Positions 13,695 through 63,418 of a stretch of 64,000 nucleotides of DNA are shown here, piece after piece (the first letter of the stretch is position 1; each line of letters begins with the position of its first letter). The DNA comes from Candidatus Nomurabacteria bacterium. GTDB lineage: Bacteria > Patescibacteriota > Minisyncoccia > Phycocordibacterales > UBA918. The DNA lies in contig JACKGH010000001.1 in assembly GCA_020632075.1 (NCBI GenBank), forward strand, positions 936,470 to 1,000,469, given 5' to 3'. Made by a program: the position numbers and the translations under genes. Below the pieces are notes generated by a model. The model did no database searches and was not told where the DNA came from. It saw only the letters and a program-made list of their open reading frames with translations.

Positions 13695-14036
13695 ATGGCA
13701 GACACTACAGCTGAAAAAGCCGGTGCTATCAATAAACTCCGCATTCGAGTTCGTGCCTACGAGCACAAGATCCTCGATGCATCAGTGAAGCAGATCATTG
13801 ACACTGCACAGCGTTTCGACGCTACTGTAGTTGGTCCGATCCCGCTTCCTACGGAGATCAAGAAGTACACGGTGAACCGTTCAACGTTCGTGCACAAGGA
13901 CGCGCGAGAACAATTCGAGATGCGAACCCACAAGCGTGTGATCGACATCCTCAATCCGGGTCCGAAGGTAGTGGAAGCTCTCACGAACCTCTCACTCCCG
14001 AGCGGCGTGAACATTGATGTGAAGATGATGGCGTAA
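13695..14036 (+). CDS. rpsJ: 30S ribosomal protein S10
   Basis: KLRIRVRAYEHKILDASVKQI...RSTFVHKDAREQFEMRTHKRVIDI. Confidence 0.95.
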   Translation: MADTTAEKAGAINKLRIRVRAYEHKILDASVKQIIDTAQRFDATVVGPIPLPTEIKKYTVNRSTFVHKDAREQFEMRTHKRVIDILNPGPKVVEALTNLSLPSGVNIDVKMMA

Positions 14037-14070
14037 TAATAGTCACAGACTATCATTTAGAGCCTCACTA

Positions 14071-14093
14071 AAAAGCCCCTGCGGGGCTTTTTG
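14071..14093 (+). terminator. intrinsic terminator directly after rpsJ
   Basis: aaaagcccctgcggggcttttt: a hairpin plus a T-tract. It uncouples rpsJ from whatever follows. Confidence 0.6.
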
Positions 14094-14162
14094 GTTGGTG
14101 TACAGGTGTGGCTCGAGGTTTGTGTTAGTGTGGTATATTGTGTACAAGTCGCGACTATCTTT

Positions 14163-15779
14163 ATGCATATTGAAAACGCCATACAAGAATGGACGCAGCT
14201 CTTGGGTTCTGAGGCGGTGCTCACCGACGCACCAGCGATGAGCATGTATCGCTGCTCAACAGTTTCAGAGGAACGTGAGGTGCCAGCGGTGCTGGTGCCC
14301 AACACGTGCGAGGTTATTTCAGAGCTGGTTGTCATTGCCCGTCGACATGGAGTCTCGCTGTATCCAGTGAGCACGGGCAATAATTGGGGGTATTCCGATT
14401 CGCTTCCCGACACCGACTATACGGTGATCGTTGATCTAAGTAAGCTACAGAATATTTCCTTCGATGCTGATCTTGGAGTAGTTACTGTAGAGCCAGGGGT
14501 GACACAACAGCAATTGTCGGAATATCTAGAAGCACAGCAGGCTCCTTACCTCGTACCGGTGTCTGGTGCTGGGCCACATTGCAGCCTGATCGGCAATGCG
14601 TTGGAGCGTGGGTATGGCATCACGCCGTACGCCGATCACTGGGGAGCTCTGACGTATCTCAAAGCTGTCTTGCCAGATGGTACTCTGTACCAAAATGCGC
14701 TGGCCGATATGGGAGCGCACCAGGTCGCCAAGCTGCATAAGTGGGGTCTGGGTCCGTACCTCGACGGTATCTTTTCCCAAGGGGCGTTCGGGATAGTGAC
14801 CGAAGCGACCTTCTTATTGAAACGAAAGCCTGAAAAGACCATTGAGTTTTTGTTTAACGTGACCGATGATACCTTTGAGTCAGCCGTGGCTGCGGTACAG
14901 AATATGCTGGCTGAACTAGAAGGGGTGGTGAGCGGGGTTAATTTCATGAATGGTCGTCGGGTGCTTTCGATGATCGATGAACGGCTTGGGTCGACCCTCG
15001 GTCCTGTAGTGGTGCCTGATGAAGAGGTCGCAGCTATGCTGCGCTCTAAGCAGCTGACCGAGTGGTCTGGGGTCGGGGCGCTCTACGGGAGTGCTGAGAT
15101 GGTGCGCGCGGCCAAGAAGATTGTCAAGAAGCATTTGAAGCCGCACGCCAAACGGCTCGTGTTTGTCACTCCTGGTATGCTGCGGCTTGCGGCGGCTGGG
15201 CTCGCGGTGCTCCCGAATGTGCAGCTTGTGCGTGAATTTCGTAATCTCGTCGCTTCGACCCGATTAAGTATGCAGATGTTTCAAGGGCAGCCGAGTCAGG
15301 TGGCGATGCCGCTGGCGTACCTGAAGAATACGTATAAACCTACCCGGTTCGACCTACCGCTTGATCCAGCCGAGGATGGTAGTGGACTGGCTTGGTTTAC
15401 CCCGCTCTTGCCAATTAAGCCAGCGGCGGCTCGGGCGTACGTAGAAATTGTGGATCGGGTGTGCAAGAAACACGGCATTGAGCCACTTATCACACTCACT
15501 ACCATTTCTACCGTGCTGTTTGATAGTAGTGTGCCACTCTTGTACAGCAAAGACGATCCTGATGGACTGCAGCGGGTGCGTGATTGTTACGCAGAGCTGG
15601 CATCCGAATGCCTTAAAAATGGTTCGTACGTGTATCGGCTTGGAGTACATTCGATGCGTGCCGTCGCAGATTCAGATGATCACTTTTGGGATATTGTTGC
15701 CGCCATTCAGCAGGCACTCGATCCACAACAAACAATCTCACCGGGACGATATGCCCCGTTGCAACAATCTGATGTCTAA
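14163..15779 (+). CDS. FAD-binding oxidoreductase (PCMH/VAO-type FAD-linked oxidase)
   Basis: VISELVVIARRHGVSLYPVSTGNNWGYSDS is an FAD_binding_4-like motif. The start is taken at the ATG at 14163, downstream of the rpsJ terminator. Confidence 0.65.
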   Translation: MHIENAIQEWTQLLGSEAVLTDAPAMSMYRCSTVSEEREVPAVLVPNTCEVISELVVIARRHGVSLYPVSTGNNWGYSDSLPDTDYTVIVDLSKLQNISFDADLGVVTVEPGVTQQQLSEYLEAQQAPYLVPVSGAGPHCSLIGNALERGYGITPYADHWGALTYLKAVLPDGTLYQNALADMGAHQVAKLHKWGLGPYLDGIFSQGAFGIVTEATFLLKRKPEKTIEFLFNVTDDTFESAVAAVQNMLAELEGVVSGVNFMNGRRVLSMIDERLGSTLGPVVVPDEEVAAMLRSKQLTEWSGVGALYGSAEMVRAAKKIVKKHLKPHAKRLVFVTPGMLRLAAAGLAVLPNVQLVREFRNLVASTRLSMQMFQGQPSQVAMPLAYLKNTYKPTRFDLPLDPAEDGSGLAWFTPLLPIKPAAARAYVEIVDRVCKKHGIEPLITLTTISTVLFDSSVPLLYSKDDPDGLQRVRDCYAELASECLKNGSYVYRLGVHSMRAVADSDDHFWDIVAAIQQALDPQQTISPGRYAPLQQSDV

Positions 15780-16449
15780 GTCTTTTTCCAAGAAAAACCC
15801 ATACGTCGCCGCACTTATCCAGCTACTCGGTACGCTACTGATACTGTGGTTTGCTCCGAATGATGCGGTTGCGCTTGGTGTGCTGCTGGTGTTTTGGTTT
15901 GTGACCTTTCGGCCGATTACGAGGTTTGAAGGAGCGCTTTTTGCGGCTGCTTCGGTGGTTATGGCCGGCGCACAGATTCTGACGCCGGTGCCAACAATAT
16001 TCTATTTTACGCAAGAAACGCTTGGCAACATACCGCTGTATGAGACGGTGATGTGGGGGTTCTATGTACTATTTGTATTTCGGTTAGTGGGTACTCGGTT
16101 TACGTGGGCTGCTTGGTGGAAGTATGTCTTGGCTGTAGGGTCGCTACTTGGGGCATTCGTACTCTGCGCCGGCTCACAGCAGAGCATTTTACCTGCGCTA
16201 CTGGTCGCGGTGGCGCTCATTGTGGCTTTGTTTCACACAAAGTCAGACTGGCAGTACATCACTGTTTTCGTAGTACTGTGTGTCGCCATTGAGGTAGTGG
16301 GTACGGCGCGTGGTCTCTGGGTATACCCCGGTGTCGCAACCAGTGTGCATGTAGGTGGATTGCTGCCAGTATGGATGTTTCTGTACTGGGCGGGGGCTGG
16401 TCTCTTGCTTCTGCGTATACTGCCACCACTCCTGCATCGAGTACGGTGA
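15772..16449 (+). CDS. polytopic membrane protein (6-7 TM)
   Basis: The ATG at 15772 overlaps the oxidase stop by 8 nt, suggesting translational coupling. Hydrophobic throughout. The ORF-track start at 15448 is rejected because it would overlap the oxidase by more than 300 nt. Confidence 0.5.
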   Translation: MSKSFSKKNPYVAALIQLLGTLLILWFAPNDAVALGVLLVFWFVTFRPITRFEGALFAAASVVMAGAQILTPVPTIFYFTQETLGNIPLYETVMWGFYVLFVFRLVGTRFTWAAWWKYVLAVGSLLGAFVLCAGSQQSILPALLVAVALIVALFHTKSDWQYITVFVVLCVAIEVVGTARGLWVYPGVATSVHVGGLLPVWMFLYWAGAGLLLLRILPPLLHRVR

Positions 16450-16473
16450 TAGTAACGTGATGTCGTAACGAGC

Positions 16474-16980
16474 GTGGGTATAATAGATCACATGAAACAC
16501 GTAGAAAAAATATGGGCAGTGCTTCGACTGTTGTTCGGGTGGACTTTTTTGTGGGCGTTTACCGACAAGGTGTTTGGTCTCGGCTTCGCGACTGAGCCAG
16601 GGAAGGGCTGGATCGACGGCGGGTCACCGACGTATGGCTTTCTGCAGTTTGCGACCAAGGGCCCATTCGCTGAATTTTACCAATCACTGTCTGGCAGCGT
16701 CGTGGTGGAATGGTTGTTTATGCTCGGCTTGTTGTTTGTTGGTGTTACGTTACTGCTCGGTATTATGGTAAAGCTGGGTGCATTGGCTGGTATGGCCCTG
16801 TACCTATCATTCTATACGGCGGGATTTATACCCCCTGAACACAACCCGTTCATCGACGAACACATCATCAATGCCGTCATCATGCTTGGTCTCTTTGTCA
16901 CCGTGCCGAGTGAATTCTTGGGGCTTGGTAAATCGTGGAAGCGACAAGCTCTAGTACGACGTTACCGCTGTTTGGTGTAG
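16474..16980 (+). CDS. DoxX-family membrane protein
   Basis: LLFGWTFLWAFTDKVFGLGFA ... LGLLFVGVTLLLGIMVKLGALAGMALYLSFY resembles the DoxX/TQO small-subunit family. Confidence 0.55.
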   Translation: MGIIDHMKHVEKIWAVLRLLFGWTFLWAFTDKVFGLGFATEPGKGWIDGGSPTYGFLQFATKGPFAEFYQSLSGSVVVEWLFMLGLLFVGVTLLLGIMVKLGALAGMALYLSFYTAGFIPPEHNPFIDEHIINAVIMLGLFVTVPSEFLGLGKSWKRQALVRRYRCLV

Positions 16981-17054
16981 GCTGAAGTGGCGGATCGACT
17001 GTTATCCACAGGTGCCCCTTGCATGATTTGATGAAGGGTTCATAATGTAATTAA

Positions 17055-17117
17055 CAGGAGGCGAATCGCGCAAGCGATTCGCCTTTCTCGTCGTTATCGT
17101 CGACGCGATTCGCCTCC
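17055..17117 (+). promoter_or_regulatory. palindromic element/terminator: AGGAGGCGAATCGC-gcaa-GCGATTCGCCT followed by a second direct copy GCGATTCGCCTCCT
   Basis: Arm A (17055-17068) can pair with the near copy B (17073-17083; 11 bp, GCAA loop, followed by tttctcg) or the far copy C (17104-17117; 14 bp). The A:B hairpin probably terminates the DoxX gene. Confidence 0.4.
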
Positions 17118-17457
17118 TGTGCTTGCTCCACTCCCCCTCGGGAATACAGCAGGTATTAGTAAATTGTTCTTTTAGAAAGAAGTTGCCTAAGTTCTCACCG
17201 TAGAATCTAAACTCGGTGAGATAAAACAAAGTAAACACCAGAGAAACGTACAACGTAGACTCATGGTGAGAGTTTAGGTAACTTCTACAGTTCTTTTAAC
17301 TTTAAGCTAAGTATGAATGATTTAGCACCAAATAAGATGACCTTCCAGAGCGAAAATGCCTGGATGGTACAGTGTTTGAGTCTTGCCGCAGTCGGCGTAC
17401 TCGCATATCTACATATGGCACCGATCTTCGCTGCCTAGTCATCTTATCAACTAATCA

Positions 17458-17487
17458 AAGCCGGACCGAACAGGTTCGGCTTTTTTG
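17458..17487 (+). terminator. orphan plus-strand terminator-like hairpin plus T6 with no upstream plus-strand CDS
   Basis: agccggaccgaacaggttcggcttttttg. The nearest plus-strand gene ends at 16980, which suggests an unannotated small transcript in 17120-17460. Confidence 0.35.
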
Positions 17488-17510
17488 TACGACACGACAA
17501 TTGTCAGATC

Positions 17511-17540
17511 AAAAAAGCCCGAGTTGTACTCGGACTTTCG
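17511..17540 (-). terminator. intrinsic terminator for minus-strand gene 17551..18588
   Basis: The minus strand reads cgaaagtccgagtacaactcgggctttttt. Confidence 0.5.
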
Positions 17541-17550
17541 TGCATAATGT

Positions 17551-18588
17551 TTATCCTTGAGTAGGCGGCGGAAGAGTAGGGATGGTTGTGATGAGTTTCT
17601 GCACTAGGTCAGGTCGAGCTTCCAAGTACTTGTATCGGCCGAGTGAGAGACCTTCGTACTCGGTGATGTATGCGCGGATCATAGGACGAAGGTCACTGGC
17701 AAGGAATTCGTCAATTGCCTCTTCAGCTTGTTCAGTTTCACCGATCTTGAGCAGGTAGTCGATTCGAGCAATCTTGATAAAATCTCGCGTGGTACAGCGT
17801 GGTGAAATATACACTGATGCGTCACACATACTCTCGCCTTGATCGTAGAGACTAAGTACATTCTCAGGTACTACGACACTCACTGGGATGCTGACATTAT
17901 CGATGAGGGAGATCAAATTACCAGCATGCATGTAGAGGTCTGGGGTCAGGTTTGCGAGATGTGGATGCTTCATGTACTCCTCAACATCAGCATCAAGTTT
18001 CTCATAGGTGTCCATGTAGATAGCGTGACGGTTGAACTCATCGCCACGGAGAATCTCATGTAGTCGAAGGTCCATGTAGACAATACCCATTGGGTACAGG
18101 TCATAGATCTTTTGATTCATGAGATAGTTTTTTGCACCAGGTTCCAGTGTACTTGCTTCCGGTGGTAAGAATTCATCAAGTAGATCAAAACGATTGTACC
18201 CGTTTGCCTGCTGGGAGATCTTGAAGAGTGCGAGAGCTCTCTCTTGGTCGTTGAGATCTGAGTTGTTGTAGATATTCCGATATGCTGATACAAGTCCTTC
18301 GAGATCGTATGGGTCAACACGCTTTGCGAGGTCTACGATGCGCAGTAAATGATTAGCTTTATGCTCTGGGTCTGTTGTTTGAGCTGCGAGTTTCGCGACT
18401 TCTTCTGTCGGCAATGTCCAGTAGTTTGCGTTGCTTGGTAAGCCGTCACTGCCGATGATGTAGCCAACTTCAGCAACCTCCTGTTCTAGTGCGGTCTCAC
18501 GCTGTGTGTATTCGTAGACAAATAGAAAGAGTATGGCCAAAATAACTACCACGAGAAGCGCTAGGGTATATTTTATGATTTGATTCAT
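17551..18588 (-). CDS. N-terminally membrane-anchored exported protein, unknown function
   Basis: A 345-aa protein with an N-terminal TM helix (ALLVVVILAILFLFVY) and the remainder hydrophilic. Confidence 0.5.
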   Translation of the reverse strand: MNQIIKYTLALLVVVILAILFLFVYEYTQRETALEQEVAEVGYIIGSDGLPSNANYWTLPTEEVAKLAAQTTDPEHKANHLLRIVDLAKRVDPYDLEGLVSAYRNIYNNSDLNDQERALALFKISQQANGYNRFDLLDEFLPPEASTLEPGAKNYLMNQKIYDLYPMGIVYMDLRLHEILRGDEFNRHAIYMDTYEKLDADVEEYMKHPHLANLTPDLYMHAGNLISLIDNVSIPVSVVVPENVLSLYDQGESMCDASVYISPRCTTRDFIKIARIDYLLKIGETEQAEEAIDEFLASDLRPMIRAYITEYEGLSLGRYKYLEARPDLVQKLITTIPTLPPPTQG

Positions 18589-18614
18589 AGATCGATGTTT
18601 ATGTACTTGTAAAG

Positions 18615-18830
18615 TTAGATGCCTCCACCATCATCGTCACCATCACTGGTACCCCATAAGTCAACGAATGCGTCAGCAGACACGTCTCGTACTTCGGGTG
18701 AGAAATCAGTTGATAGTTCTGTTGAGAATTCCTTTTTTTTAAGGAATGGAATTAAAGCGATCAGTGCTCCAACAACTACAATAAAGCCATAGACTGCTAC
18801 TCGGATAACTTTTTTAAGGTTTACGTCCAT
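18615..18830 (-). CDS. small membrane protein with acidic C-terminus
   Basis: 71 aa; one TM helix (VAVYGFIVVVGALIALIPF); the C-terminus is DGDDDGGGI. Confidence 0.4.
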   Translation of the reverse strand: MDVNLKKVIRVAVYGFIVVVGALIALIPFLKKKEFSTELSTDFSPEVRDVSADAFVDLWGTSDGDDDGGGI

Positions 18831-19035
18831 AATGCTGATTAGTTTTTTTAAGGTCTCGCAATGTAGGGATAATTATATAGTAGGTCGCGAGAATCACAAT
18901 GACCGTAAGCCACACTGTCCACCAGAGAACAATAAGAATATCTACGTATGGTGCAAGCCAGGTCTGAGTAGGAAGGAGTGAAACCGGGTCGTTACCAGCG
19001 AGCATATCCGGGATATAGTATATTTTTTCGTCCAT
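18814..19035 (-). CDS. small membrane protein
   Basis: 73 aa; TM helix VDILIVLWWTVWLTVIVILATYYIII. It overlaps the downstream gene and lies in the same operon. Confidence 0.4.
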   Translation of the reverse strand: MDEKIYYIPDMLAGNDPVSLLPTQTWLAPYVDILIVLWWTVWLTVIVILATYYIIIPTLRDLKKTNQHYGRKP

Positions 19036-19046
19036 AATTAAGGTGT

Positions 19047-20378
19047 TTAGAAGTAAAGGTTTTTAACAGGATAAGCGATTATCTCAGGTGTGTCTTTTGG
19101 TAATTTGATCCACTCATTATGGGAGAAAGGTTGATACTGAATCTCGCACGCATTGTTAATGTCTACAATTCGGTAAAATGGTCCCCCGTTAATTGAGTGG
19201 TCAAATTGCCAGGCAACTGATTCAATCTGGTCATTTCGCTTGCAGAGTTGGTTGATACGAAACCAGCTTTTGTATAGGTCGCATCGACTTCGTGATGATA
19301 CGGTTTCTCTTCGGAGATCGGCAATACTGCCGTTTTTATAGTGCACTTGAGCTTGAGAGAGACATTGGTGGTTTGCCTCAAACATAAAGAGGCCAATACG
19401 GTTGCCTTCCTGCGTCATGCGATGGTCACCTTCAATAGTGTATGGAAAGAGTTGCCAACAGAGAAGTAGTAGGAAAAAGAACCATGCCACTATCGATCGC
19501 CTGTCACGAGGGACTGGTGATGGCCTGAAGGCTGGTCCGAACAAGATCATCAAGAGTGGAATGGTTGATAATAAATAGCGGTAGTGCACAATTAGTCCTG
19601 AATACAAGTGAAATGTTAAAAAGTAGACCACCGCGCCACGTTGTAGTAGCTTGTTTGAACTGAGAAGAAACCAGGTGCCAATGATCTGCATGAAGATCAC
19701 AAAATTAGTAATAAATGGTGTGGCGATGTCAGGGAAAATCGGTAATCCGGTTTGAAGCGACGAGAAGTATGTTCCCAACACCCAACCCTCATCCAATTTT
19801 ATGGTTGCAGCTAAAAAGTACAGGAAGACAAAGCCTAGTCTTAAGAAGAAGATCTTATACGGCAGTGCCAGCAGAATGATAGAAAAGATAAGGTCAAAAT
19901 AATCGTAGTTTCCGCCAAAGCTAGCGGTGAGAAAGAAGGTGAGTACAAATTTCCAGATAAAAAGCACACTTAAAAGCATGTGTGCAAGGACCCAATCTTT
20001 CCGCCACATAAGATACGTGATGACGCCCATTATCCCCAAAAAGAAGACATAGAGTAAGGGCTGGGTGTGACCATAAGGTAAGTTAGAAAGAAAAAAATAT
20101 TCACCACAATTTTGAAAATATGGCCAGCATAAATATGCGTTGTTCAGATAAGCCTCCACGGTGGTATAGTGGGATTCTGCGTAGAAAGCAAAACTGATTA
20201 CATAGGTAAGCAAAAGAGCGCCAAAAGACCATTGAAGTGTGCCGCTTCTTTCAATTTCAAAAATTGAGAAAAAAGATCGATACCAACACAAGAAACGTTG
20301 CTCAATTTTGTGGGTAAAAATTTGATCTCGTAAAGGGGTGATGTTGGAGTCACTACTGCTTGTTTGTTCTCTGTCCAT
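19047..20378 (-). CDS. large polytopic membrane protein (8 or more TM) with a C-terminal Cys-containing soluble domain; possibly HTTM-like (speculative)
   Basis: A 443-aa protein with multiple hydrophobic helices and a soluble C-terminal region of about 130 aa. It is the first gene of a four-gene minus-strand operon. Confidence 0.5.
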   Translation of the reverse strand: MDREQTSSSDSNITPLRDQIFTHKIEQRFLCWYRSFFSIFEIERSGTLQWSFGALLLTYVISFAFYAESHYTTVEAYLNNAYLCWPYFQNCGEYFFLSNLPYGHTQPLLYVFFLGIMGVITYLMWRKDWVLAHMLLSVLFIWKFVLTFFLTASFGGNYDYFDLIFSIILLALPYKIFFLRLGFVFLYFLAATIKLDEGWVLGTYFSSLQTGLPIFPDIATPFITNFVIFMQIIGTWFLLSSNKLLQRGAVVYFLTFHLYSGLIVHYRYLLSTIPLLMILFGPAFRPSPVPRDRRSIVAWFFFLLLLCWQLFPYTIEGDHRMTQEGNRIGLFMFEANHQCLSQAQVHYKNGSIADLRRETVSSRSRCDLYKSWFRINQLCKRNDQIESVAWQFDHSINGGPFYRIVDINNACEIQYQPFSHNEWIKLPKDTPEIIAYPVKNLYF

Positions 20379-20398
20379 ATACGGGTATTATAGGACAG

Positions 20399-22045: not shown

Positions 22046-22049
22046 TATC

Positions 22050-54784: not shown

Positions 54785-54787
54785 TCT

Positions 54788-55237: not shown

Positions 55238-55254
55238 GCGATAAGATACAGCTT

Positions 55255-56532
55255 ATGCAAACATTCCTTCACAAACTCAAAGTAATCTTCACTGAACCAG
55301 CTATCCGTAACCGTGTACTCTTTGTGCTTGGTGCGTTGGTAGTCTTCCGTGCACTTGCTTCGATCCCGATCCCGGGCATCAATCAGGCAGTGCTCCAAGA
55401 GTTTTTTAACAACAACCAATTCTTTGGTCTGTTGAACATCTTTTCAGGTGGTGGACTCACTAACCTGTCGATCGTGATGCTTGGTGTTGGTCCGTTTATT
55501 ACGGCATCGATCATCATGCAGCTTTTGACGGTAATGTCGCCAAAGCTCAAGAGCCTCTACACTGAAGAAGGAGAGGCGGGGCGTGCACGCTTTACACAGT
55601 ACAGCCGTATGCTCACTTTGCCACTTGCGATCTTGCAAGGCTTCGGTTTCCTTACTCTTTTGCAGAGTCAGGGAGTGATCACAGACCTGACTCAGTTCCA
55701 GATGGCAACAAACATCATACTGATCGTAGCTGGTTCAATGCTCCTCATGTGGATCGGTGAGTTGGTAACTGAGTACGGTGTTGGTAATGGTGTGTCCATC
55801 ATTATCTTCGCTGGTATCGTGGCAACTCTGCCATCGACAGCGAGTCAACTCTTATTCGGATATCAGGCTACAGAGCTGCCGTTCTATGTTGGCTTTGGTG
55901 TTGTCGCTCTTGCGATCATCTACGCTGTCGTGGTCATGACTGAAGCAGAGCGACCAGTGCCGATCACCTATGCGAAGCAGAGTCGTGGGGGAGCGACCTA
56001 TGGAAAGAGTCAGTCATACCTGCCAATGCGTCTCAATCAGGCTGGTGTGATTCCGATCATTTTCGCCCTCTCGATCATTCTCTTCCCGCAGATGGTGCTC
56101 AATATCTTGTCAGCGATAATGACTGGTGAGCCATGGGTAGAGACTGCAACGCTGATGGTGAACAACTTTATGGCTAATCAGTGGGCATACGGAGGCGTCT
56201 ACTTTGTGCTCGTGTTCCTCTTCACCTTCTTCTACACTGCAGTCACCTTTGACCCAGATTCTGTGGCAAAGAACTTGCAGCGAAGCGGTGGATTCATTCC
56301 TGGTATTCGTCCAGGCGGACACACAGCAGAATACCTTGGTAATCTCGTTACCCGACTTACCTTGGTGGGTGCGCTCTTTCTTGGTGCGATCGCGGTACTC
56401 CCAGTGGGTATGCAGATCGCTACCGGTAAGCCACAGCTCGCGATCGGTGGTACTGCGGTACTCATTGTGGTATCGGTGGTGCTTGACCTGATCCGTCGAC
56501 TCGACGCACAGGTATCGATGCGGGAGTACTAA
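55255..56532 (+). CDS. secY: preprotein translocase subunit SecY
   Basis: 425 aa and 10 TM helices; LGVGPFITASIIMQLL. Confidence 0.95.
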   Translation: MQTFLHKLKVIFTEPAIRNRVLFVLGALVVFRALASIPIPGINQAVLQEFFNNNQFFGLLNIFSGGGLTNLSIVMLGVGPFITASIIMQLLTVMSPKLKSLYTEEGEAGRARFTQYSRMLTLPLAILQGFGFLTLLQSQGVITDLTQFQMATNIILIVAGSMLLMWIGELVTEYGVGNGVSIIIFAGIVATLPSTASQLLFGYQATELPFYVGFGVVALAIIYAVVVMTEAERPVPITYAKQSRGGATYGKSQSYLPMRLNQAGVIPIIFALSIILFPQMVLNILSAIMTGEPWVETATLMVNNFMANQWAYGGVYFVLVFLFTFFYTAVTFDPDSVAKNLQRSGGFIPGIRPGGHTAEYLGNLVTRLTLVGALFLGAIAVLPVGMQIATGKPQLAIGGTAVLIVVSVVLDLIRRLDAQVSMREY

Positions 56533-56552
56533 ACTTAAATGTAAAGTTTCAA

Positions 56553-56618
56553 AAAGACCCTTTCGAGGGTCTTTTTGTTTTACCGGCCGGGTCCCCTTCG
56601 GGGACCCGGCCGGTTTTT
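56553..56618 (+). terminator. tandem pair of intrinsic terminators after secY
   Basis: aaagaccctttcgagggtctttttg, followed by accggccgggtcccc-ttcg-gggacccggccggttttt. Confidence 0.7.
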
Positions 56619-56670
56619 AGCCCGGATCACATGCTACACTTTAGGGAGTTATTTCTAACGCAATACATCC

Positions 56671-58431
56671 ATGTTTTCATTTATTCTTTTGATCGCGCTG
56701 GTGGTCGTTTGGATCAAATTCGACCGACGCATCGAGCGCCTCGAAATGCTCTTGCGCCAGCGTGGTAATGCTCCCACTGAGCAGGTGCCAGTACCGCGTC
56801 CGATGCCGACGGCAGAAACTGCATTTACTCGCCGCCTTTCAGAAGAGGAGATCAGTGAATATGGCCCAACGATGTATGAGCCAAGTGGTCCTTCTGCGAT
56901 CAGCCGTTTTATTGACTGGGTCAAGAAAGACTTCATGGTGAAGTTGGGGGCATTTCTCCTACTCCTTGCGTTCGGCTGGTTTGTGAGTTACGCGATCATG
57001 GAAGAGTGGATCGGTCCAGCAGGGCAGATCGCACTTGGTTTGCTGGCCGGAGTATTCTTTCTTGGTCTGGGTGTGTGGCGCATCGAGTCATACCGACACC
57101 AGGGAGGGATCTTCACGGTGCTTGGCGCTTCGATCGTACTCTTTACTTTGTTTGCAGCTCGTGAGATCTATGACATGTTCACGCCAGCGTCGGCACTCTT
57201 TGTGATGTTCATGGCAGTCGTGTTTGTTGCGTTTGTGAGTGTGCGGTATCAGAGTGAGAAGTTGGCACACGCTGGCCTGCTACTGGGTAGTGCAGCACCA
57301 CTCTTTACTGGTGTGCTTGCTGACGCGCCGACACATTTCATGTACTTACTCATCGTGGCCCTTGGTAGCTTGTGGGTGGTCTGGAATACGGGTTGGACAC
57401 GACTTATTCTTGTATCGCTCGTGGTCACGTACTTCTACAGTGTTGCATTTATGATCGATGGATTCCGAGCCGATCGCGACGTTGTCCTGCTATTCTCATT
57501 TATCTTTGTCAGTATGTACTTTGCTGCCAACATGGTCAGCTTGGTTCGTCGACATGTCGAAGGAGTGAAACATATGCTCACTCACACCCTTGTCGCGCTC
57601 GGTACGGCCATCTTCCTCTTTACCTGGATCGAGGTGGCAGTGGATGCTGAGTGGAAGAGTATTCTGTATGTTGCTTGGGCAATGATCTTTGCGGTCGGTA
57701 CGTACATTGTGTATTCGTTCACTGCCAACAAACCAGCTTTTTACCTCTATGGTGCGACAGCAGCAGCTCTCATTGGGGTAGCGACCGCGGCTGAGCTCGA
57801 TGGGCCAGTCCTGACGCTCGCGTACCTCTTCGAGATCTGCGTGCTTCTTCTGGCTGCTGGACGACTCGGTCTTCGGGCTCGGACCCTGTCTCGTATGAGT
57901 CTCTTGCTGACGGTGCCAGTGCTCTTATCGCTTGAGAGCTTTGGTTCATCAGCGTGGCGACAGGGTGTTTTTCATGAAGATTTTGTAGTGCTTGGCCTCA
58001 CGATGTTTGTGCTTGGTACTATCGGATTATTGCTCCATGCCAAGAGTGCTGAAGCCGAAGACGAAGTTGCTTTGATCACTGCACAAGGTCACTTGGCCGT
58101 GTCTGGGCTCTACGCCACAGCACTCGTTTGGTTGATATTGCATGCTGCTGTTGCCTCTGATGATCTGGCAACTATGCTGTCGCTCATTATCTACACCGTG
58201 GTGGGTATTGGACTGTTCGTGGCAGGTACCGCACGATCGATTGATTGGCAGCGATTGGTGGGGAGTATCCTGATCGGCTTTGTGGTGTTGCGGTTGTTGT
58301 TTGTTGAGGTGTGGGATATGAATCTTGAAGGACGTATCATCACCTTCTTGATCATCGGTGTGCTGCTGATCTCGACTGCATTCTTACATAAGAATCGGAA
58401 GCAGACAGATGACGTAATTGTGAGCGAGTAA
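56671..58431 (+). CDS. large polytopic membrane protein (DUF2339-like)
   Basis: 586 aa: an N-terminal TM helix, a short soluble segment, and then about 16 TM helices. Confidence 0.45.
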   Translation: MFSFILLIALVVVWIKFDRRIERLEMLLRQRGNAPTEQVPVPRPMPTAETAFTRRLSEEEISEYGPTMYEPSGPSAISRFIDWVKKDFMVKLGAFLLLLAFGWFVSYAIMEEWIGPAGQIALGLLAGVFFLGLGVWRIESYRHQGGIFTVLGASIVLFTLFAAREIYDMFTPASALFVMFMAVVFVAFVSVRYQSEKLAHAGLLLGSAAPLFTGVLADAPTHFMYLLIVALGSLWVVWNTGWTRLILVSLVVTYFYSVAFMIDGFRADRDVVLLFSFIFVSMYFAANMVSLVRRHVEGVKHMLTHTLVALGTAIFLFTWIEVAVDAEWKSILYVAWAMIFAVGTYIVYSFTANKPAFYLYGATAAALIGVATAAELDGPVLTLAYLFEICVLLLAAGRLGLRARTLSRMSLLLTVPVLLSLESFGSSAWRQGVFHEDFVVLGLTMFVLGTIGLLLHAKSAEAEDEVALITAQGHLAVSGLYATALVWLILHAAVASDDLATMLSLIIYTVVGIGLFVAGTARSIDWQRLVGSILIGFVVLRLLFVEVWDMNLEGRIITFLIIGVLLISTAFLHKNRKQTDDVIVSE

Positions 58432-58433
58432 GT

Positions 58434-59645
58434 ATGATCACTATGTTTCAGAAAAATATTGTCATCACAGGATCACTCCTGTTTGTCGTACTTGGTCTTG
58501 GACTTTGTACCGCAGAAGCGCGGACACCACAGATTGCAGAGATGGAGGAAGCACCCGAAACCGCCTTTATGAAAATGATCCCGGTGCCAGCTGTTGATGT
58601 GGTAGTGCCGACTGTCGTCGAAGTGCCGATCGGCGAGCGGGTCTGGGATGATGAGACTTTCTTAGTCAAAGAGCGAGCAACCGGGCGATATATTGGTTCA
58701 TACTTGTCGTCGAAAACAGCAGTTGGTCTCACGCCAGTGTCAGTCAGTAGTGTGCCAAATGTAACTTCAGTGAACCGGCTAAATGATGGCAAGTTGGATA
58801 CCTTTACTGACTTTGATCTGCCAGCCGAAGGGGTGGGACAGGTGTCACTTACACTTAGTGCAAACAGCCCGATCACGTCATCACAGTTACGATTACGACT
58901 GGCACAGTATGTAGCTCTACCACTTACGGTGCAGGTGCAATACCAACGTCCTGGTGAGGATACCCTGCAGACGGCAGTTGCAACCACACGTATGACTGGT
59001 ACGACCGTGACCTTTCCCGAAGTAACTGCAACTCGATTTGTCGTTACCTTTACCTACGGTCAGCCACTGCGCATTACTGAACTATCGTTCGATCAGAAGA
59101 ATGCAGCTGTTACAGAAGAACAACGACTACGCTTCCTGCTGCAGCCGGGGGAGGACTATGATATTTACTACGATGCCGATCGCTCAGTACGAGTATCAAC
59201 GAGTGAGGTTGGTAACTTGTACAACGATAAGGAGGTGCTCTTGGTGTATGGCGGCTCACCTCGGGCTAATCAGCTGTATGTACCAGCTGACAGTGATGGT
59301 GATGGGGTGCGTGATACATTTGATAACTGTGTACAGATGTCGAATGAAGATCAGGTTGATATCGATGGTAATGGCCGCGGAGATGTGTGTGATGATTGGG
59401 ACCGAGATGGTCGTCTGAACAGTGCAGATAACTGCGTGAATGAGCCAAACCGAGATCAGCGAGATGAAGATCATGATGGTATCGGAGATGTGTGTGATGA
59501 GGAAGAGAGTCGCTTTACCGAAGCAAATCCGTGGGTGCCGTGGGTCGGTATCGGATTTGCAGGGTTAGTGCTGTTGCTACTCTTCACGTTGGTTGCTAAG
59601 CGGCCGGCTATACAAGCTGGTGAGGAAAAGAGAGAGGGAGAATAA
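58434..59645 (+). CDS. exported protein with thrombospondin type-3 (DxDxDG Ca-binding) repeats and a C-terminal TM anchor
   Basis: A signal peptide, then DSDGDGVRDTFDNCVQMSNEDQVDIDGNGRGDVCDDWDRDGRLNSADNCVNEPNRDQRDEDHDGIGDVCDEEE, and a C-terminal helix (GIGFAGLVLLLLFTLVA). Confidence 0.6.
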   Translation: MITMFQKNIVITGSLLFVVLGLGLCTAEARTPQIAEMEEAPETAFMKMIPVPAVDVVVPTVVEVPIGERVWDDETFLVKERATGRYIGSYLSSKTAVGLTPVSVSSVPNVTSVNRLNDGKLDTFTDFDLPAEGVGQVSLTLSANSPITSSQLRLRLAQYVALPLTVQVQYQRPGEDTLQTAVATTRMTGTTVTFPEVTATRFVVTFTYGQPLRITELSFDQKNAAVTEEQRLRFLLQPGEDYDIYYDADRSVRVSTSEVGNLYNDKEVLLVYGGSPRANQLYVPADSDGDGVRDTFDNCVQMSNEDQVDIDGNGRGDVCDDWDRDGRLNSADNCVNEPNRDQRDEDHDGIGDVCDEEESRFTEANPWVPWVGIGFAGLVLLLLFTLVAKRPAIQAGEEKREGE

Positions 59646-59653
59646 GTGGAACT

Positions 59654-59690
59654 AAAACTGGCCGGGCCCCGAAGGGGCCCGGCCAGTTTT
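59654..59690 (+). terminator. intrinsic terminator
   Basis: aaaactggccgggcccc-gaa-ggggcccggccagtttt. Confidence 0.7.
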
Positions 59691-59694
59691 AGTC

Positions 59695-60252
59695 ATGGAC
59701 AAACCACCTTATTTGTGGTTTTCTATCTACGGAAATAGTAGTTTCAGTGTGGAGAGTACCGCTGTGTACAAAATTATAATCACTGCAAAACCAGCCGGTC
59801 ACGCCCTCTTGTATGAGCGTCTTGGCCGGTCTGGTCGTCGGAAGCGAGTGCGCGCGTATGAGGCGATCGTAAGTATGCCGGATGGCACACAACACTCGTT
59901 CATGTTCACGCGTGATGTGTCCGATATAGTCTTTGGTGGTTTGCGGCAGCATTTCGGAGTAGGAGGTGAATGTCCGCCGAATCGAATTGACCTTCCATAC
60001 ACTGGCGTGCTGCATCGATCAGCGAACATTCCGTTCGCGATCAAGTTGTTTGATCAGCCAGATCAGACATTGCTTGGTGCTGGTGTGGTGGTGCGTAGGA
60101 ATCTGTTGATCCATCATGGTCCTGCTCGGAGCGAGGGATGTTTCACGATCGCTGGTGGCAAGAGGCACTTCAAACGGTTCAGGAGGCTACTTGAGCCCAT
60201 ACTGCACCGAGGTGTTCATATCGAAGTCGTTGTAGAACCAAGAGACAAGTAA
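59695..60252 (+). CDS. candidate L,D-transpeptidase-fold protein (YkuD/Tlde1-like His...Ser-x-Gly-Cys), no signal peptide
   Basis: NLLIHHGPARSEGCFTIAGG resembles the catalytic His / S-x-G-C core of L,D-transpeptidase-like domains. The spacing is shorter than in canonical YkuD, so the call is tentative. Confidence 0.35.
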   Translation: MDKPPYLWFSIYGNSSFSVESTAVYKIIITAKPAGHALLYERLGRSGRRKRVRAYEAIVSMPDGTQHSFMFTRDVSDIVFGGLRQHFGVGGECPPNRIDLPYTGVLHRSANIPFAIKLFDQPDQTLLGAGVVVRRNLLIHHGPARSEGCFTIAGGKRHFKRFRRLLEPILHRGVHIEVVVEPRDK

Positions 60253-60281
60253 AAAGCCGGCCCATATGGAGCCGGCCCATT

Positions 60282-60914
60282 TTAATATTGATTCTTTAAA
60301 GAATATCCGAGTGGTACCTCGTGTCGTCGCGGTTCCCACACTTCTGCATCAAGCCATTCCTTATAGGCATCAAAGATAGCGATCGCTACCGACTGGACAT
60401 TTTGACGTGAAGTATCGAGCACGAAGTCAAAGTGATTGGTGTCGTACGGATCGACACCATAGAGTCGTTTAAAACGATTTTGTTCGGTGAGCATTCGTTC
60501 TCGTACTTGTCGTGATACGGTGCCGAGAGAGGTGCTGCTTGTACCGACCGCCGAGCGGCTGGCGTTGGTCACGGCGTCTTTGAAGATGCGCGCGGTGGCG
60601 AGTTCGATATCGAGGTCGAGGTACACTTTGAATGATTCAGGGATCCAGTAGAAGCCAAGACGTGAGTCCACGATGATATCGTCCTTTTCGCGAAGTTTGC
60701 GAAGGGACTCGTCGACCTGATGGTCCATTTCATGGTTCTCAACTGCGCGCTTATTGTACTCCTCAAGAGTCATTTTTTTCTTGGTGAGGATCTGTCGAAC
60801 GAAGTCACCGGAAGAGTGTCGTGTGTAGCCAAGTAGTTCTGCCACACGGTCGGCAGTAGAGGACTTACCGCTACCAGGCTTGCCAGAGATCGTGATGATG
60901 TGTTTCTTTTCCAT
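60282..60914 (-). CDS. cytidylate kinase-like NMP kinase (archaeal-type cmk / AAA-kinase)
   Basis: The start is taken at the internal ATG (MEKKHIITISGKPGSGKSSTADRVAELLGY...SGDFVR). It has a P-loop and an NMP-binding region. Confidence 0.55.
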   Translation of the reverse strand: MEKKHIITISGKPGSGKSSTADRVAELLGYTRHSSGDFVRQILTKKKMTLEEYNKRAVENHEMDHQVDESLRKLREKDDIIVDSRLGFYWIPESFKVYLDLDIELATARIFKDAVTNASRSAVGTSSTSLGTVSRQVRERMLTEQNRFKRLYGVDPYDTNHFDFVLDTSRQNVQSVAIAIFDAYKEWLDAEVWEPRRHEVPLGYSLKNQY

Positions 60915-61049
60915 GCAGAGTATAAGCATACCATGAACGAAACCTGATCATACAACTATTGACAGATTATAGAAATGCGTGTTTACTATTTTCAGTGGCC
61001 AGTCGGCCCATCTGTACACTCACTACTTTGATGATCTTGGAGGTATATC

Positions 61050-61346
61050 ATGGCTCTGGCCAAGAAACTGATCGTTGCTCTGTTCGCAGCTTCGCTGCTC
61101 GGCCTCGGTGGCTGCGCCACTGCGGAAAAAGGCTGGGACAAGACTAAGGCTGGTTTTAACAGCGTCAAGTCTGGTATCAGCAAAACCTTCTCTGGTTCTG
61201 GTTCCACGTCAGGAATCAAGACGCCGTGGAGTGAAGCGAAGAAAGGTATCGTCTGGCCCTGGGACGCACTCCGCGACACCAAGTCGCAGGATGCCTACCG
61301 TCGAGGACTGACACCTGCCGAAGCGGCAGCAGAAATGGGACGATGA
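61050..61346 (+). CDS. small lipoprotein
   Basis: A lipobox (LLGLGGC) follows a signal peptide; the protein is 98 aa. Confidence 0.5.
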   Translation: MALAKKLIVALFAASLLGLGGCATAEKGWDKTKAGFNSVKSGISKTFSGSGSTSGIKTPWSEAKKGIVWPWDALRDTKSQDAYRRGLTPAEAAAEMGR

Positions 61347-61460
61347 GTCCAATGATGCACGCGCTGTGGTTTTACACCACAGCGCGTTCCATGTTTAGAG
61401 TAAAATAACCAATAAAATAAATTGCATTCACTCGCAAAAGTTGGTACTCTCCCTACATCT

Positions 61461-62033
61461 ATGGAACATAATACGAAGTATCTGAGTGTGGTCTTGATGG
61501 GAAAGATCGCGTCGGGTAAGGGGACACAGGCCTCTGAAATTGCGCACGAATTTGGTGGTGTCGTGTACTCAAACGGGAACAAGTTGCGCGAGGTCATCCA
61601 ACACCCAACACCGTTTGGCCGCAAGATGAAAGATATGTACGAGGAAGGCTATCTTATGCCAGAGTGGGTAGCTTCGTATTGGATGACACATGCGCTCGTA
61701 TCTCAGTATGAGAACGAACGGGTGATCTTTGAAGCAGTGGCGCGCAAGCCAAACGAAGCAGAGCTCTTCCATGAGATCCATGAGTGGGTAGAGCGACCAT
61801 ATATTGTATTCAACCTAGATGTGCCTGATGATGTTGTGCGAGAACGAAGCTTGAGTCGTGCGCGTGACGTGGTGGATTCCGCCGAAAAGATCGAGAAGCG
61901 ACTTGATGAATACCGCACGTACACCACGAAGTCGATCGAGTTCTTCCGTGAACAAGGCACCTTGATCGACATTGATGGAACACTATCTCCGGAAGAAGTG
62001 AAGCAACACATTTTTAATCATTTGCAGCAGTAG
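61461..62033 (+). CDS. divergent adenylate-kinase-like NMP kinase paralog (lacks the DGFPR motif)
   Basis: A P-loop (LMGKIASGKGTQ), but the NMP-bind/LID segment reads VIFEAVARKP instead of the conserved LIDGFPRT. The start is taken at the ATG at 61461. Confidence 0.5.
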   Translation: MEHNTKYLSVVLMGKIASGKGTQASEIAHEFGGVVYSNGNKLREVIQHPTPFGRKMKDMYEEGYLMPEWVASYWMTHALVSQYENERVIFEAVARKPNEAELFHEIHEWVERPYIVFNLDVPDDVVRERSLSRARDVVDSAEKIEKRLDEYRTYTTKSIEFFREQGTLIDIDGTLSPEEVKQHIFNHLQQ

Positions 62034-62042
62034 CGATAATAT

Positions 62043-62639
62043 ATGCAACCAACAACCGTTATTTTTATTGGTCCACAGGGAAGTGGAAAGGGGACTCAGA
62101 TCGAGCTTTTGTATAAAGTGATGACCGAGAAAGACCCGGCTCGTCGAGTGGTAGATATCCAAACCGGTCGCCGGTTTCGTGCACTAGCTGCAAAGCATGA
62201 GACCTTTGCTGAACGAAAGATCAATGCGACGCTCGACTCTGGAGTGCTTCAGCCAGACTTTTTAACGCACGTACTTTGGGGACAGGCGATGCTCGATCAG
62301 TTGGACGCAAAGAGTCACTTGCTTATTGATGGTTTTCCACGCACGGTGCCACAAGCAGAAGTGCTTGATGACGCGCTTGCGTTTTTTGAGCGTGATATGC
62401 TTCATGTGATCAATCTCGACACGCCGGAAGAAGTCGTACGGAAGCGCATGTACGAACGGGCGCGAGCAGATGACACTGATGAATCGATCGAAGAGCGCCT
62501 GCGGTGGTATCGTGAAGAGACGTTGCCGGTGCTTGACTACTACCGGGTGCGGCCAGACACTGAAGTGCATGATCTCGAAGGGACTGACACAATTGAAGGT
62601 GTGCACGCACAGATCTTGACTGCGCTCAAGTTAACCTAA
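62043..62639 (+). CDS. adk: adenylate kinase
   Basis: IFIGPQGSGKGTQ P-loop and a canonical LLIDGFPRTVPQAEVLD. Confidence 0.85.
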   Translation: MQPTTVIFIGPQGSGKGTQIELLYKVMTEKDPARRVVDIQTGRRFRALAAKHETFAERKINATLDSGVLQPDFLTHVLWGQAMLDQLDAKSHLLIDGFPRTVPQAEVLDDALAFFERDMLHVINLDTPEEVVRKRMYERARADDTDESIEERLRWYREETLPVLDYYRVRPDTEVHDLEGTDTIEGVHAQILTALKLT

Positions 62640-62644
62640 AACAT

Positions 62645-63418
62645 ATGATTACCAAGAAAACTCCAGAAGAGATCGAGACCCTTAAGGAAGCGGGATCTAT
62701 TCTTGCTAAGATCCTCAAGGGTGTGGCTGCCGAGATCAAACCAGGTGTAACTACCTTGTCGCTAGATGATCGTGCGATGGATTTGGCTGAAGAGTACGGG
62801 GTTGAGCCGGTACTCCTCGGCTATCATCCCGGATTTGCGGATCGTCCGTATCCAGCAGCGATTTGTGTGTCGGTGAACAACTGTGTCCAGCATGGTATTC
62901 CGTCTGAAGATTTCGTGCTCGAAGAGGGCGATGTGGTGAACATCGACATGTCGATCGCACATAAGGACATGATCGTTGACTCAGGACTCACTGTCGGAGT
63001 GGGGGAGATCAGTGATGAGGCGCGCAAACTACTAGCTGTCACTGAGGAGGCGCGAGCGATCGGTATCAAGGAAGCAAAGCCGGGTAATCACATTGGTGAT
63101 ATCAGTGCCGCGATCCAGAAGCATGTGGAGTCGCGTGGTTTCTCGGTCGTGCAGGTGCTCTGTGGTCATGGGGTTGGGTATGCCGTGCATGAAGATCCGA
63201 CGATCCCAAACTACGGCAAGGCTGGAACTGGTCCGCTTATCGAAGTGGGGCATGTGTATGCGATCGAACCAATTGTAAATATCGGCAAGCCCGATGTGGT
63301 ATTTGATGATGAAGGTGATGGCTACAGTGTATATACGACTGACGGTAGCTGGAGCGCACACTTTGAACATACGGTAGCGATCACTGAGGATGGTCCGCTC
63401 ATTTTGACTAAGGAATAG
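62645..63418 (+). CDS. map: type I methionine aminopeptidase
   Basis: VNNCVQHGIPS...VNIDMSIAHKDMIVDSG...LCGHGVGYAVHEDP. Confidence 0.9.
   Translation: MITKKTPEEIETLKEAGSILAKILKGVAAEIKPGVTTLSLDDRAMDLAEEYGVEPVLLGYHPGFADRPYPAAICVSVNNCVQHGIPSEDFVLEEGDVVNIDMSIAHKDMIVDSGLTVGVGEISDEARKLLAVTEEARAIGIKEAKPGNHIGDISAAIQKHVESRGFSVVQVLCGHGVGYAVHEDPTIPNYGKAGTGPLIEVGHVYAIEPIVNIGKPDVVFDDEGDGYSVYTTDGSWSAHFEHTVAITEDGPLILTKE

Follow-up and report, generated by a model that had tools for sequence, protein, structure and literature searches.

In the 64,000-nucleotide stretch of Candidatus Nomurabacteria DNA analysed here (the window), the str-S10-spc ribosomal supercluster lies in six blocks, with multi-kilobase gaps at four of the junctions. 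A first reading, made from the letters alone (the sequence-only reading), had described a ribosomal-protein cluster fragmented by four accessory islands and transcriptionally dismantled. Judged from the gene order of about 160 related loci, the break points are ancestral and clade-wide, not peculiar to this genome. We consider it very probable that the supercluster underwent an ancestral re-partition into self-regulated modules, and that the gaps between them act as permissive slots for cargo genes.

A supercluster in six modules

Six-frame open reading frames (ORFs) and Pfam matches give the order fusA, tuf-rpsJ, rplCDWB, rpsS to rplE, rpsN to secY and adk-adk-map, and Pfam confirms every gene that had been named from the sequence. 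All mapped genes are on the + strand unless marked otherwise.

9941-12121, +: fusA (Pfam), a stand-alone unit with a promoter-like site at 9820-9848
12444-13634, +: tuf (Pfam)
13695-14036, +: rpsJ (Pfam); the module tuf-rpsJ is 12444-14036
24688-25308, +: rplC (Pfam)
24688-27324, +: module rplC-rplD-rplW-rplB (Pfam); internal gaps in relatives have medians of 14-18 bp
26464-27324, +: rplB (Pfam)
32880-33206, +: rpsS (Pfam)
32880-36633, +: module rpsS-rplV-rpsC-rplP-rpmC-rpsQ-rplN-rplX-rplE (Pfam)
52625-52810, +: rpsN, 61 aa, CxxC…CxxC four-cysteine zinc type
52625-56532, +: module rpsN(Zn)-rpsH-rplF-rplR-rpsE-rplO-secY (Pfam), without L30
55255-56532, +: secY (Pfam)
61422-62033, +: first adk-like gene (Pfam)
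62043-62639, +: second adk-like gene (Pfam, NCBIfam)
62645-63418, +: map (Pfam)
61422-63455, +: module of the adk-like gene, adk and map, with the terminator at 63419-63455

From rpsJ to map the ribosomal-protein genes, secY, adk and map keep their canonical relative order. What is lost is the near-contiguity of the canonical S10-spc supercluster: the gaps measure 10,651 bp (rpsJ to rplC), 5,555 bp (rplB to rpsS), 15,991 bp (rplE to rpsN) and 4,889 bp (secY to adk), in agreement with the four interruptions of 10.65, 5.56, 15.99 and 4.89 kb first described. Taken together, the slots from rpsJ to adk span about 37 kb, which makes this genome the one with the most cargo; reverse-strand genes are present in all four gaps. 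At the canonical S10/spc boundary, rpsQ and rplN are fused, only 1 bp apart. The rpsN gene is of the Z type, as had been recognised. The spacing of 3 bp between rpsE and rplO means that L30 is absent, which the sequence-only reading had also noticed, although this loss is a trait stated for all bacteria of the Candidate Phyla Radiation (CPR) (PMC5220378). Its remark that rpsL and rpsG are not upstream of fusA holds as well, an E. coli RpsL (S12) probe having no match in the window. A tRNA search of the window was empty, and at gathering score it contains no Rfam family.

The missing L30, an extracytoplasmic function (ECF) sigma factor and a DUF5667 protein together indicate a CPR/Patescibacteria genome, and all 80 best rplB loci come from metagenome-assembled genomes (MAGs) of Patescibacteria/Paceibacteria. 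Identical contigs show that the window belongs to the same species as NCBI assembly GCA_020428695.1.

Break points shared by a clade

We placed the ribosomal proteins of the window by tblastn in two sets of related loci, together some 160: the best 80 (63-88% identity) from a scan of the window's L2 against one genome per GTDB species (set 1), and the best 80 from a metagenome scan with SecY (set 2). The loci of set 1 are all from Patescibacteria/Paceibacteria MAGs, with labels that include Kaiserbacteria, Nomurabacteria, OLB19 and UBA3466. Among the relatives is a closed chromosome, CP060229.1, and the same junctions are open in it. The distances in relatives are as follows.

rpsJ to rplC: median 1552 bp, range 74-6432, above 500 bp in 48/54
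rplB to rpsS: median 2473 bp, range 260-9937, above 500 bp in 46/49
rplE to rpsN, set 1: median 1079 bp, range 221-3999, above 500 bp in 18/26
rplE to rpsN, set 2: median 803 bp, range 197-5626, above 500 bp in 20/33
secY to adk: median 1292 bp, range 44-2350, above 500 bp in 47/50

The gap between fusA and tuf is variable too, reaching 4.5 kb in relatives. Tight junctions are found at tuf-rpsJ, rplC-rplD, rplW-rplB, rpsS-rplV, rplX-rplE, rpsN-rpsH and rplO-secY, with medians of -7 to 64 bp and a maximum of 331 bp; the tuf-rpsJ gap is 23-310 bp in 53/53 relatives. The window has the largest gap of all at rpsJ-rplC, rplE-rpsN and secY-adk, and at rplB-rpsS its 5,555 bp are exceeded in several relatives (up to 9,937 bp).

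In a quick neighbour-joining tree of concatenated L3, L4, L23 and L2, the most distant loci (L076 and L078-L082) form a basal group. There, rpsL is still upstream of fusA in three loci, and rpsJ and rplC are near-contiguous (74-375 bp) in four of the five loci that have both genes, with 5,075 bp between them in L082. The scoring of leaders by clade covered the motifs of rplC, rpsS and rpsN described below, and none of the three was found in this group. A large crown clade has all the cuts together with the rplC, rpsS and rpsN leaders. Within it, a sub-clade carries a reverse-strand DUF2103 gene in the rplB/rpsS gap, to which the innermost clade, including the window, adds an acidic PG_binding_1 protein. 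In two metagenomic loci, L139 (1-3500) and L159 (1-3800), tuf-rpsJ is directly followed by DUF2103 and rpsS; rplC-rplD-rplW-rplB is absent from its place and must therefore lie elsewhere.

Promoters and terminators at the module borders

Each ribosomal block can be read as lying between its own promoter-like site and its own terminator. One shared sigma-70-like form, TTGC/ACnn-N16-17-GTATxCT, stands upstream of tuf, rplC, rpsS and rpsN, and at each of the three junctions after rpsJ, rplB and rplE, where terminators had been proposed, a hairpin and a T-run are present.

12142-12177, +: terminator after fusA, G+C-rich hairpin and T-run
12182-12209, +: promoter-like site of tuf, TTGCAA-N16-TACTAT
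14070-14092, +: terminator after rpsJ, G+C-rich hairpin and T-run
24470-24500: terminator after the last gene of island 1, G+C-rich hairpin and T-run
24503-24530, +: promoter-like site of rplC, TTGCCA-N16-TATACT
27323-27361, +: terminator after rplB, G+C-rich hairpin and T-run
32533-32561, +: promoter-like site of rpsS, TTGACT-N17-TATTCT
36642-36684: terminator after rplE, a bidirectional hairpin at which short-read contigs break
52455-52482, +: promoter-like site of rpsN, TTGCTT-N16-TATTCT
56551-56576 and 56582-56618, +: two terminators in tandem after secY
63419-63455, +: terminator after map

This layout extends to the relatives. A simple detector run on the 110 nt after each gene found terminators behind fusA in 23/30 cases, rpsJ in 31/55, rplB in 53/57, rplE in 29/49 and secY in 35/81 (43-93% across block-end genes), against 0-2% behind 14 internal genes. 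With terminators behind block-end genes only, the relatives have the modular layout of transcription as well, and it therefore belongs to the clade as a whole. In the window itself, a scan of 33001-53000, a region that is mostly island 3 and includes the rpsS-rplE block, gave 47 terminator-like sites for 19±4 expected.

Many gene ends carry similar bidirectional terminator hairpins, which form one family, AAAAC(C)GGCCGGCCCC-GAAG/TTCG-GGGGCCGGCC(G)GTTTT (12142-12177, 24469-24500, 29546-29577, 31209-31249, 36642-36684, 56582-56618, 59651-59693, 60246-60281 and 63417-63455). Short-read contigs of this species end within this family, and its ribosomal cluster is consequently fragmented in metagenome assemblies.

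Four structured leaders

Conservation upstream of each ribosomal block reaches far beyond the promoter, and between the conserved promoter-like site and the first gene of four modules lies a structured leader. Rfam gives no match in any of the four even at E<5; what it returned was terminator-like and lay outside them, and the L20_leader match at 36566-36687 (29.8 bits for a threshold of 58.7) is the rplE terminator.

12182-12443, +: promoter and structured leader of tuf-rpsJ, with BoxA-like GGCTCTTTCCACACG at 12265-12279, apical GTTCTCGCGCC at 12305-12315 and GGTGTGTGCGG at 12392-12402
24535-24687, +: rplC leader RNA, a candidate new ribosomal-protein leader (promoter 24503-24530)
32533-32879, +: promoter and leader of rpsS, with conserved 5' GTTCCAACC and a hairpin at 32623-32672 with invariant apical GGCCGTTACC
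52455-52624, +: promoter and leader of rpsN, with a hairpin at 52573-52607, a mimic of the S8 site in helix 21 of 16S rRNA

The leader hairpin that had been noticed ahead of rplC is a long branched one, with a predicted fold of -69.6 kcal/mol (z = -10). RNAalifold on the raw MAFFT alignment missed its long helices, the hairpin regions being misaligned, and a covariance model (R1), built from eight close sequences, was used instead. R1 finds one strong + strand match per locus, abutting rplC, in about 65 loci, and none in the basal group or elsewhere in the window. Its alignment holds 58 matches, that is 57 leaders and one reverse-strand echo of the hairpin in L009. In it, 89.8% of cells are paired, against at most 53% in controls with slid partners; both members of the pair have changed in 39 of 47 cases, and the covariation score is 0.374 against at most 0.068 in the slid controls. 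The likely ligand is L4, by analogy with E. coli and with the leader of Archaeoglobi.

The rplC leader also carries a CAAUGGGCAC element, and its conserved, single-stranded GGGCACA (24579-24585) can pair with UGUGCUC at 24612-24618, in the inner hairpin loop and 3' arm. One clade (L038, L039, L074) shows a compensatory change, GGGCAGA with UCUGCUC/UCUGUCC, and where CUC has become UCC both pairings survive through G-U. This may represent an alternative fold or a pseudoknot.

Across relatives, the rpsS leader has a conserved 5' GUUCCAACC and an apical GGCCGUUACC that is invariant in 38 of 40 sequences, and 12 of the 16 pairs of its hairpin show compensatory change. In the tuf leader, compensatory change affects 15 of the 20 predicted pairs. 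The latter holds a BoxA-like element, GCUCUUUCACAC, whose form in relatives, GCTCTTTCACA, agrees at 10/11 positions with GYTCTTTAANA, a gammaproteobacterial consensus (PMC5725501). In the window the element (GCTCTTTCCAC) matches that consensus at 8/11 and may pair with the downstream GUGUGCGG, apparently within a helix. As a sequence resemblance, BoxA in the tuf leader is a weak lead.

The leader of rpsN is the one whose ligand can best be proposed. The window hairpin at 52573-52607 is CGAGUAAGUCGUCGAUUCUAGGCGAUACUGCUCAC, with the core UAAGUC-GUCGAUUCUAGGC-GAUACUG. E. coli 16S helix 21, where S8 binds, reads UUAAGUCAGAUG…CAUCUGAUACUGG, that is UUAAGUC-AGAUG…CAUCU-GAUACUGG, a string confirmed as 16S rRNA in all 5426 E. 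coli genomes. The two have in common UAAGUC…GAUACUG, with AGUC/GAUAC flanked by two helices. Among relatives, two covarying helices (7/10 pairs) surround a near-invariant [A/C]GUC…GA[U/A]AC. A first pattern for the site was too strict and missed most leaders, including that of the window; the relaxed pattern occurs in 42 of 71 rpsN leaders, and its background rate, taken over 4.3 Mb outside them, is 0.0027 per 160 nt. S8 itself is encoded by rpsH, second in the rpsN module, so that the S8-like site stands on an S8-encoding mRNA. By this resemblance the rpsN leader is a mimic of the S8 site, and S8 is its likely ligand, the best supported of those proposed.

What the slots contain

The products of the islands are mainly proteins outside any Pfam family, membrane proteins or secreted proteins, which agrees with the original description of islands rich in membrane and secreted proteins of unknown function.

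14093-24500: slot 1 (island 1), a FAD_binding_4 oxidoreductase, membrane proteins, a phosphoribosyltransferase and PQQ beta-propeller protein, a TPR protein and a 517-aa secreted protein (Pfam)
27362-32532: slot 2 (island 2), a PG_binding_1 acidic repeat protein, unknown proteins, a transmembrane (TM) protein, DUF2103 (- strand) and a small membrane protein at 32162-32452 (- strand)
36685-52454: slot 3 (island 3), about 15 genes, mostly on the - strand and mostly outside any Pfam family; terminator-rich
48528-49655: MscS-like gene in island 3 (Pfam)
49813-51027: AI-2E transporter in island 3 (Pfam)
56619-61421: slot 4 (island 4), DUF2339, a TSP3-repeat protein and a 185-aa unknown protein (all three species-specific), a kinase gene (- strand) and a small ORF at 61050-61346

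Cargo turns over rapidly. When about 40 island proteins were compared with all loci by tblastn, most had no homologue in any related slot; for island 1 there were partial homologues only in L044, L035, L032 and L009, and the part found in L044 recurs upstream of rplC. Among non-overlapping ORFs of at least 150 aa in the slots of species representatives, 118/195 had no homologue in the slots of other species (23/33 in fusA/tuf, 29/52 in rpsJ/rplC, 46/89 in rplB/rpsS and 20/21 in rplE/rpsN). The synteny comparison that the sequence-only reading had called for, in which a lineage-wide order would count against its islands, therefore divides: the break points are lineage-wide, and the cargo is mostly species-specific.

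Some cargo, however, is resident, and in this respect the term accessory islands does not fit. On the - strand of the rplB/rpsS gap, DUF2103 is present ahead of rpsS in 36 of 49 set 1 loci, with identity of up to 85%; in the window it is a 105-aa ORF at 31696-32013 (PF09876, E = 5e-7). The protein ('predicted metal-binding') has no NCBIfam family, and a PDB sequence search gave no significant match. Its position suggests a link to translation. The second resident is the kinase gene at 60282-60929, which follows secY on the - strand at 49-1700 bp (median 178) in 55 loci and resembles the archaeal-type (d)CMP kinase TIGR02173 (NCBIfam, 96.3 bits for a cut-off of 102.1). The 4.9 kb between secY and adk/map, correctly sized at the outset, are thus not wholly unrelated to what follows, as this kinase is functionally related to adk. 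Together with map and one or two adenylate-kinase-like genes, this cmk-like gene closes the cluster with a small neighbourhood of nucleotide kinases.

Closer relatives share further genes. The secreted acidic protein at 28028-29539, with an N-terminal PG_binding_1 domain and about 330 D/E-rich, repetitive C-terminal residues (DNA repeat families D2, D3 and D10), is found in the same rplB/rpsS slot of 14 close species. Three tandem membrane-protein paralogues at 39517-42155 (- strand), 25-30% identical to one another and each having a terminator and a promoter-like site (TTGATT-N16-TATAAT or CATAAT) to itself, have homologues in the rplE/rpsN slot of L005 and L122.

Several slot regions deserve mention in their own right. 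The gene at 20360-22045 encodes an orotate-phosphoribosyltransferase-like domain joined to a PQQ/BamB-like beta-propeller, an unusual combination, and the same gene lies upstream of rplC in L044. A 114-aa family-less ORF at 27466-27810 (- strand) encloses a perfect hairpin with 19-nt arms (27553-27593) and probably does not represent a gene; past rplB, between 27.4 and 28.0 kb, there may be an RNA or nothing but terminators. At 42307-43350 both strands have long ORFs (316 aa on +, 347 aa on -); a public gene call picks the + strand ORF, for which the Pfam scan gave no match.

Outside the slots, ribosomal protein S5 (54137-54784, 215 aa) has a low-complexity, Arg/Gly/Pro-rich N-terminal extension of about 70 aa. 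The ECF-type sigma factor and the DUF5667 protein, the latter with long acidic repeats, lie one after the other at 6702-8578 (DUF5667 at 7238-8578) and are probably a sigma/anti-sigma pair. Two reverse-strand membrane genes and a helix-turn-helix regulator separate the DUF5667 gene from fusA, 1.4 kb further on.

Weighing the alternatives

Could the islands have been joined to the ribosomal blocks by chimeric assembly or mis-binning? To answer this, exact window proteins were looked up in public assemblies and the contigs then compared with the window. These contigs, which come from other runs and assemblers, are 100% identical to it over 12153-24036 (contig JAGQMK010000013 of GCA_020428695.1), 13439-25296 (Logan contig of SRR14234114; rpsJ, the whole of island 1 and rplC), 17217-26002 (SRR15882951), 31101-34513 (ENA ERZ28655870; TM protein, DUF2103, small membrane protein, rpsS, rplV and rpsC), 33840-36672 (SRR14234114), 36665-53189 (16.5 kb, SRR14234114; the whole of island 3 to rpsN and rpsH) and 55188-62071 (SRR15882951; secY, the whole of island 4 and adk). 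Misassembly, a check that the sequence-only reading had asked for, is excluded for most borders. The hairpins behind rplB and rplE are indeed the very points where short-read contigs break, and both joins there rest on the window's own assembly: at rplE two contigs end no more than 8 nt apart within the same terminator hairpin, and contigs also stop just past rplB. Yet the same junctions are gapped in more than 100 other assemblies, of which one is a closed chromosome, and an artefact is extremely unlikely. A recent arrival of mobile genomic islands in an intact cluster, in this genome only, is a less remote explanation and still a highly improbable one. It would account for the many cargo genes with no homologue in the slots of some 160 related loci, for the GC3 (G+C at third codon positions) of island 3, which is 0.64 for 0.50 in ribosomal genes, and for the lower G+C of parts of islands 1 and 2. 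Composition is nevertheless indecisive as a sign of foreign origin, because the other genes of the window already span GC3 values of 0.43-0.73; islands 1, 2 and 4 have 0.50, 0.46 and 0.51. No integrase, recombinase or transposase was found among the roughly 45 island proteins scanned with Pfam, nor any tRNA in the window, and a search for att-like flanking repeats returned only the terminator hairpin family and the internal repeats of the acidic protein. Against recent insertion also stand the junctions, already open in the ancestor of the crown clade with the rplC, rpsS and rpsN leaders in place, and the cargo that close relatives have in the same slot (the PG_binding_1 acidic protein, DUF2103, the L005/L122 paralogues and the island 1 part in L044).

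The remaining alternative accepts the gaps but not their effect: the cluster would be interrupted physically and not transcriptionally, with antitermination or read-through giving long transcripts and the leaders serving as processing or antitermination sites. The BoxA-like sequence of the tuf leader, at 10/11 in relatives, speaks for it, as does the read-through between concatenated ribosomal operons that PMC6735719 documents for Proteobacteria. But every gap combines several kilobases of unrelated genes with genes on the reverse strand and strong bidirectional hairpins, terminators crowd island 3, a module has been relocated altogether in some genomes, and the BoxA-like site of the window itself, at 8/11, is apparently helical. 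We regard this alternative as unlikely, although the least so of the three. Re-partition into separately regulated modules remains the explanation we prefer, and some points weigh against it. Separate transcription of the modules is inferred, and read-through or antitermination across the terminators is conceivable. A promoter scan of the whole window showed no enrichment over shuffles, therefore the promoter calls rest on position and on conservation in relatives. The ligands proposed for the leaders are predictions, with a recognisable rRNA counterpart solely for rpsN, and there the comparison was with E. coli 16S rRNA, not with the organism's own. Taking the best 80 matches per scan leaves the depth of the clade only roughly known, and the tree is built on four proteins. 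Finally, no independent contig spans the left-hand joins of islands 2 and 3, the only two so affected, because contigs end in the repeated palindromic terminator hairpins.

The picture of a transcriptionally dismantled cluster consequently stands in part. The blocks do look like separate units, with promoter, leader, terminator and reverse-strand genes in the gaps; this is not specific to the genome, the same junctions being open in nearly all of the loci compared.

A model for the re-partition and its relation to known systems

In the model that we favour, the ancestor of a large Paceibacteria clade would have re-partitioned the str-S10-spc supercluster into [fusA], [tuf-rpsJ], [rplC-D-W-B], [rpsS…rplE], [rpsN…secY] and [adk-map], with cuts inside the classical S10 and spc operons and fusion of the classical boundary between them. 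Each module would have its own sigma-70-type promoter, structured 5' leader and intrinsic terminator, conserved covarying leaders being found on four of the six, and each leader would serve the autoregulation of its module by binding a protein encoded there. A junction that co-transcription no longer crossed would become a neutral, insulated slot: insertions there would be nearly neutral because terminator and promoter already insulate it. Slot genes could then be quickly gained, lost and replaced, and a few residents fixed (reverse-strand DUF2103 and cmk).

The classical str-S10-spc-alpha cluster, in which L4 acts on the S10 leader and S8 on the spc mRNA of E. coli, has the same ribosomal gene order and the same control logic, a structured 5' operon RNA that resembles an rRNA site. 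The window differs in being cut at rpsJ/rplC, rplB/rpsS and rplE/rpsN and fused at rpsQ/rplN, which parts S10 from L4, in having kilobases of unrelated genes between units, in lacking L30 and in having rpsL/rpsG elsewhere. In E. coli the S8 site is at the start of rplE, whereas the S8-like site of the window stands ahead of rpsN.

The process has a counterpart in the disconnection model for Gammaproteobacteria and Bacilli, which in outline holds that a junction is first invaded by a small number of genes, that selection to keep the units adjacent then weakens, and that the units part (Brandis 2021, PMC8046335; Brandis, Cao & Hughes 2019, PMC6735719). The same stages can be recognised here, as small fillings, large fillings and the relocation of rplCDWB in L139/L159. 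However, most of the events highlighted in PMC8046335 are between classical operons, while the present cuts are inside S10 and spc, are fixed across a CPR clade, and have their own conserved leaders. Known leaders of ribosomal-protein genes covered by Eckert & Weinberg (2020, PMC7247131) include an L4 leader upstream of rplC-rplD-rplW-rplB in Archaeoglobi and an L2 leader (rplB) in Alphaproteobacteria. They resemble ours in their position in the 5' untranslated region, their covarying conservation and a likely ligand encoded downstream; sequences, folds and lineage are different, and Paceibacteria are not listed in Table 1 of that paper. Integrative genomic islands are also variable, species-specific accessory blocks at recurrent chromosomal positions, but here neither integrase, tRNA target nor att repeats were found, and the positions that recur are the spacers, made of terminator and promoter, that separate the ribosomal modules. 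The literature searched, incomplete in coverage and thus no proof of absence, held no prior description of this arrangement in CPR/Parcubacteria.

What the arrangement means

Fragmentation of the ribosomal supercluster in other groups and leaders of ribosomal-protein genes were already known. The novelty lies in where the cuts fall and in their being fixed throughout a CPR clade, in four leaders without earlier description, among them an S8 mimic at a new site, and in how the slots behave. There are practical consequences for short-read metagenomes: with contigs breaking at terminator hairpins and blocks up to 16 kb apart, the markers of one genome end up on several contigs, which affects binning and any marker scheme that needs a single scaffold.

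Few gene arrangements in prokaryotes are as conserved as the S10-spc cluster, whose '16 syntenic ribosomal proteins' are the basis of CPR phylogenies. The internal operon structure of this cluster is not inviolable, as S10 and spc are both cut internally in an entire clade. This provides a natural experiment on how autogenous control re-partitions once an operon is cut, with four covarying leaders outside Rfam, one of them with a recognisable ligand (S8), and it shows where, in very small genomes, accessory-gene turnover can be expected to concentrate. More tentatively, and with rather less than even confidence, we suggest that the clade has re-engineered the control of its ribosomal proteins through new fixed cuts and four undescribed classes of leader, that the spacers may be long-lived integration hot spots where surface and membrane genes are put on trial, close to the genes that a tiny genome expresses most strongly, and that the antisense DUF2103 and cmk genes are perhaps linked to translation.

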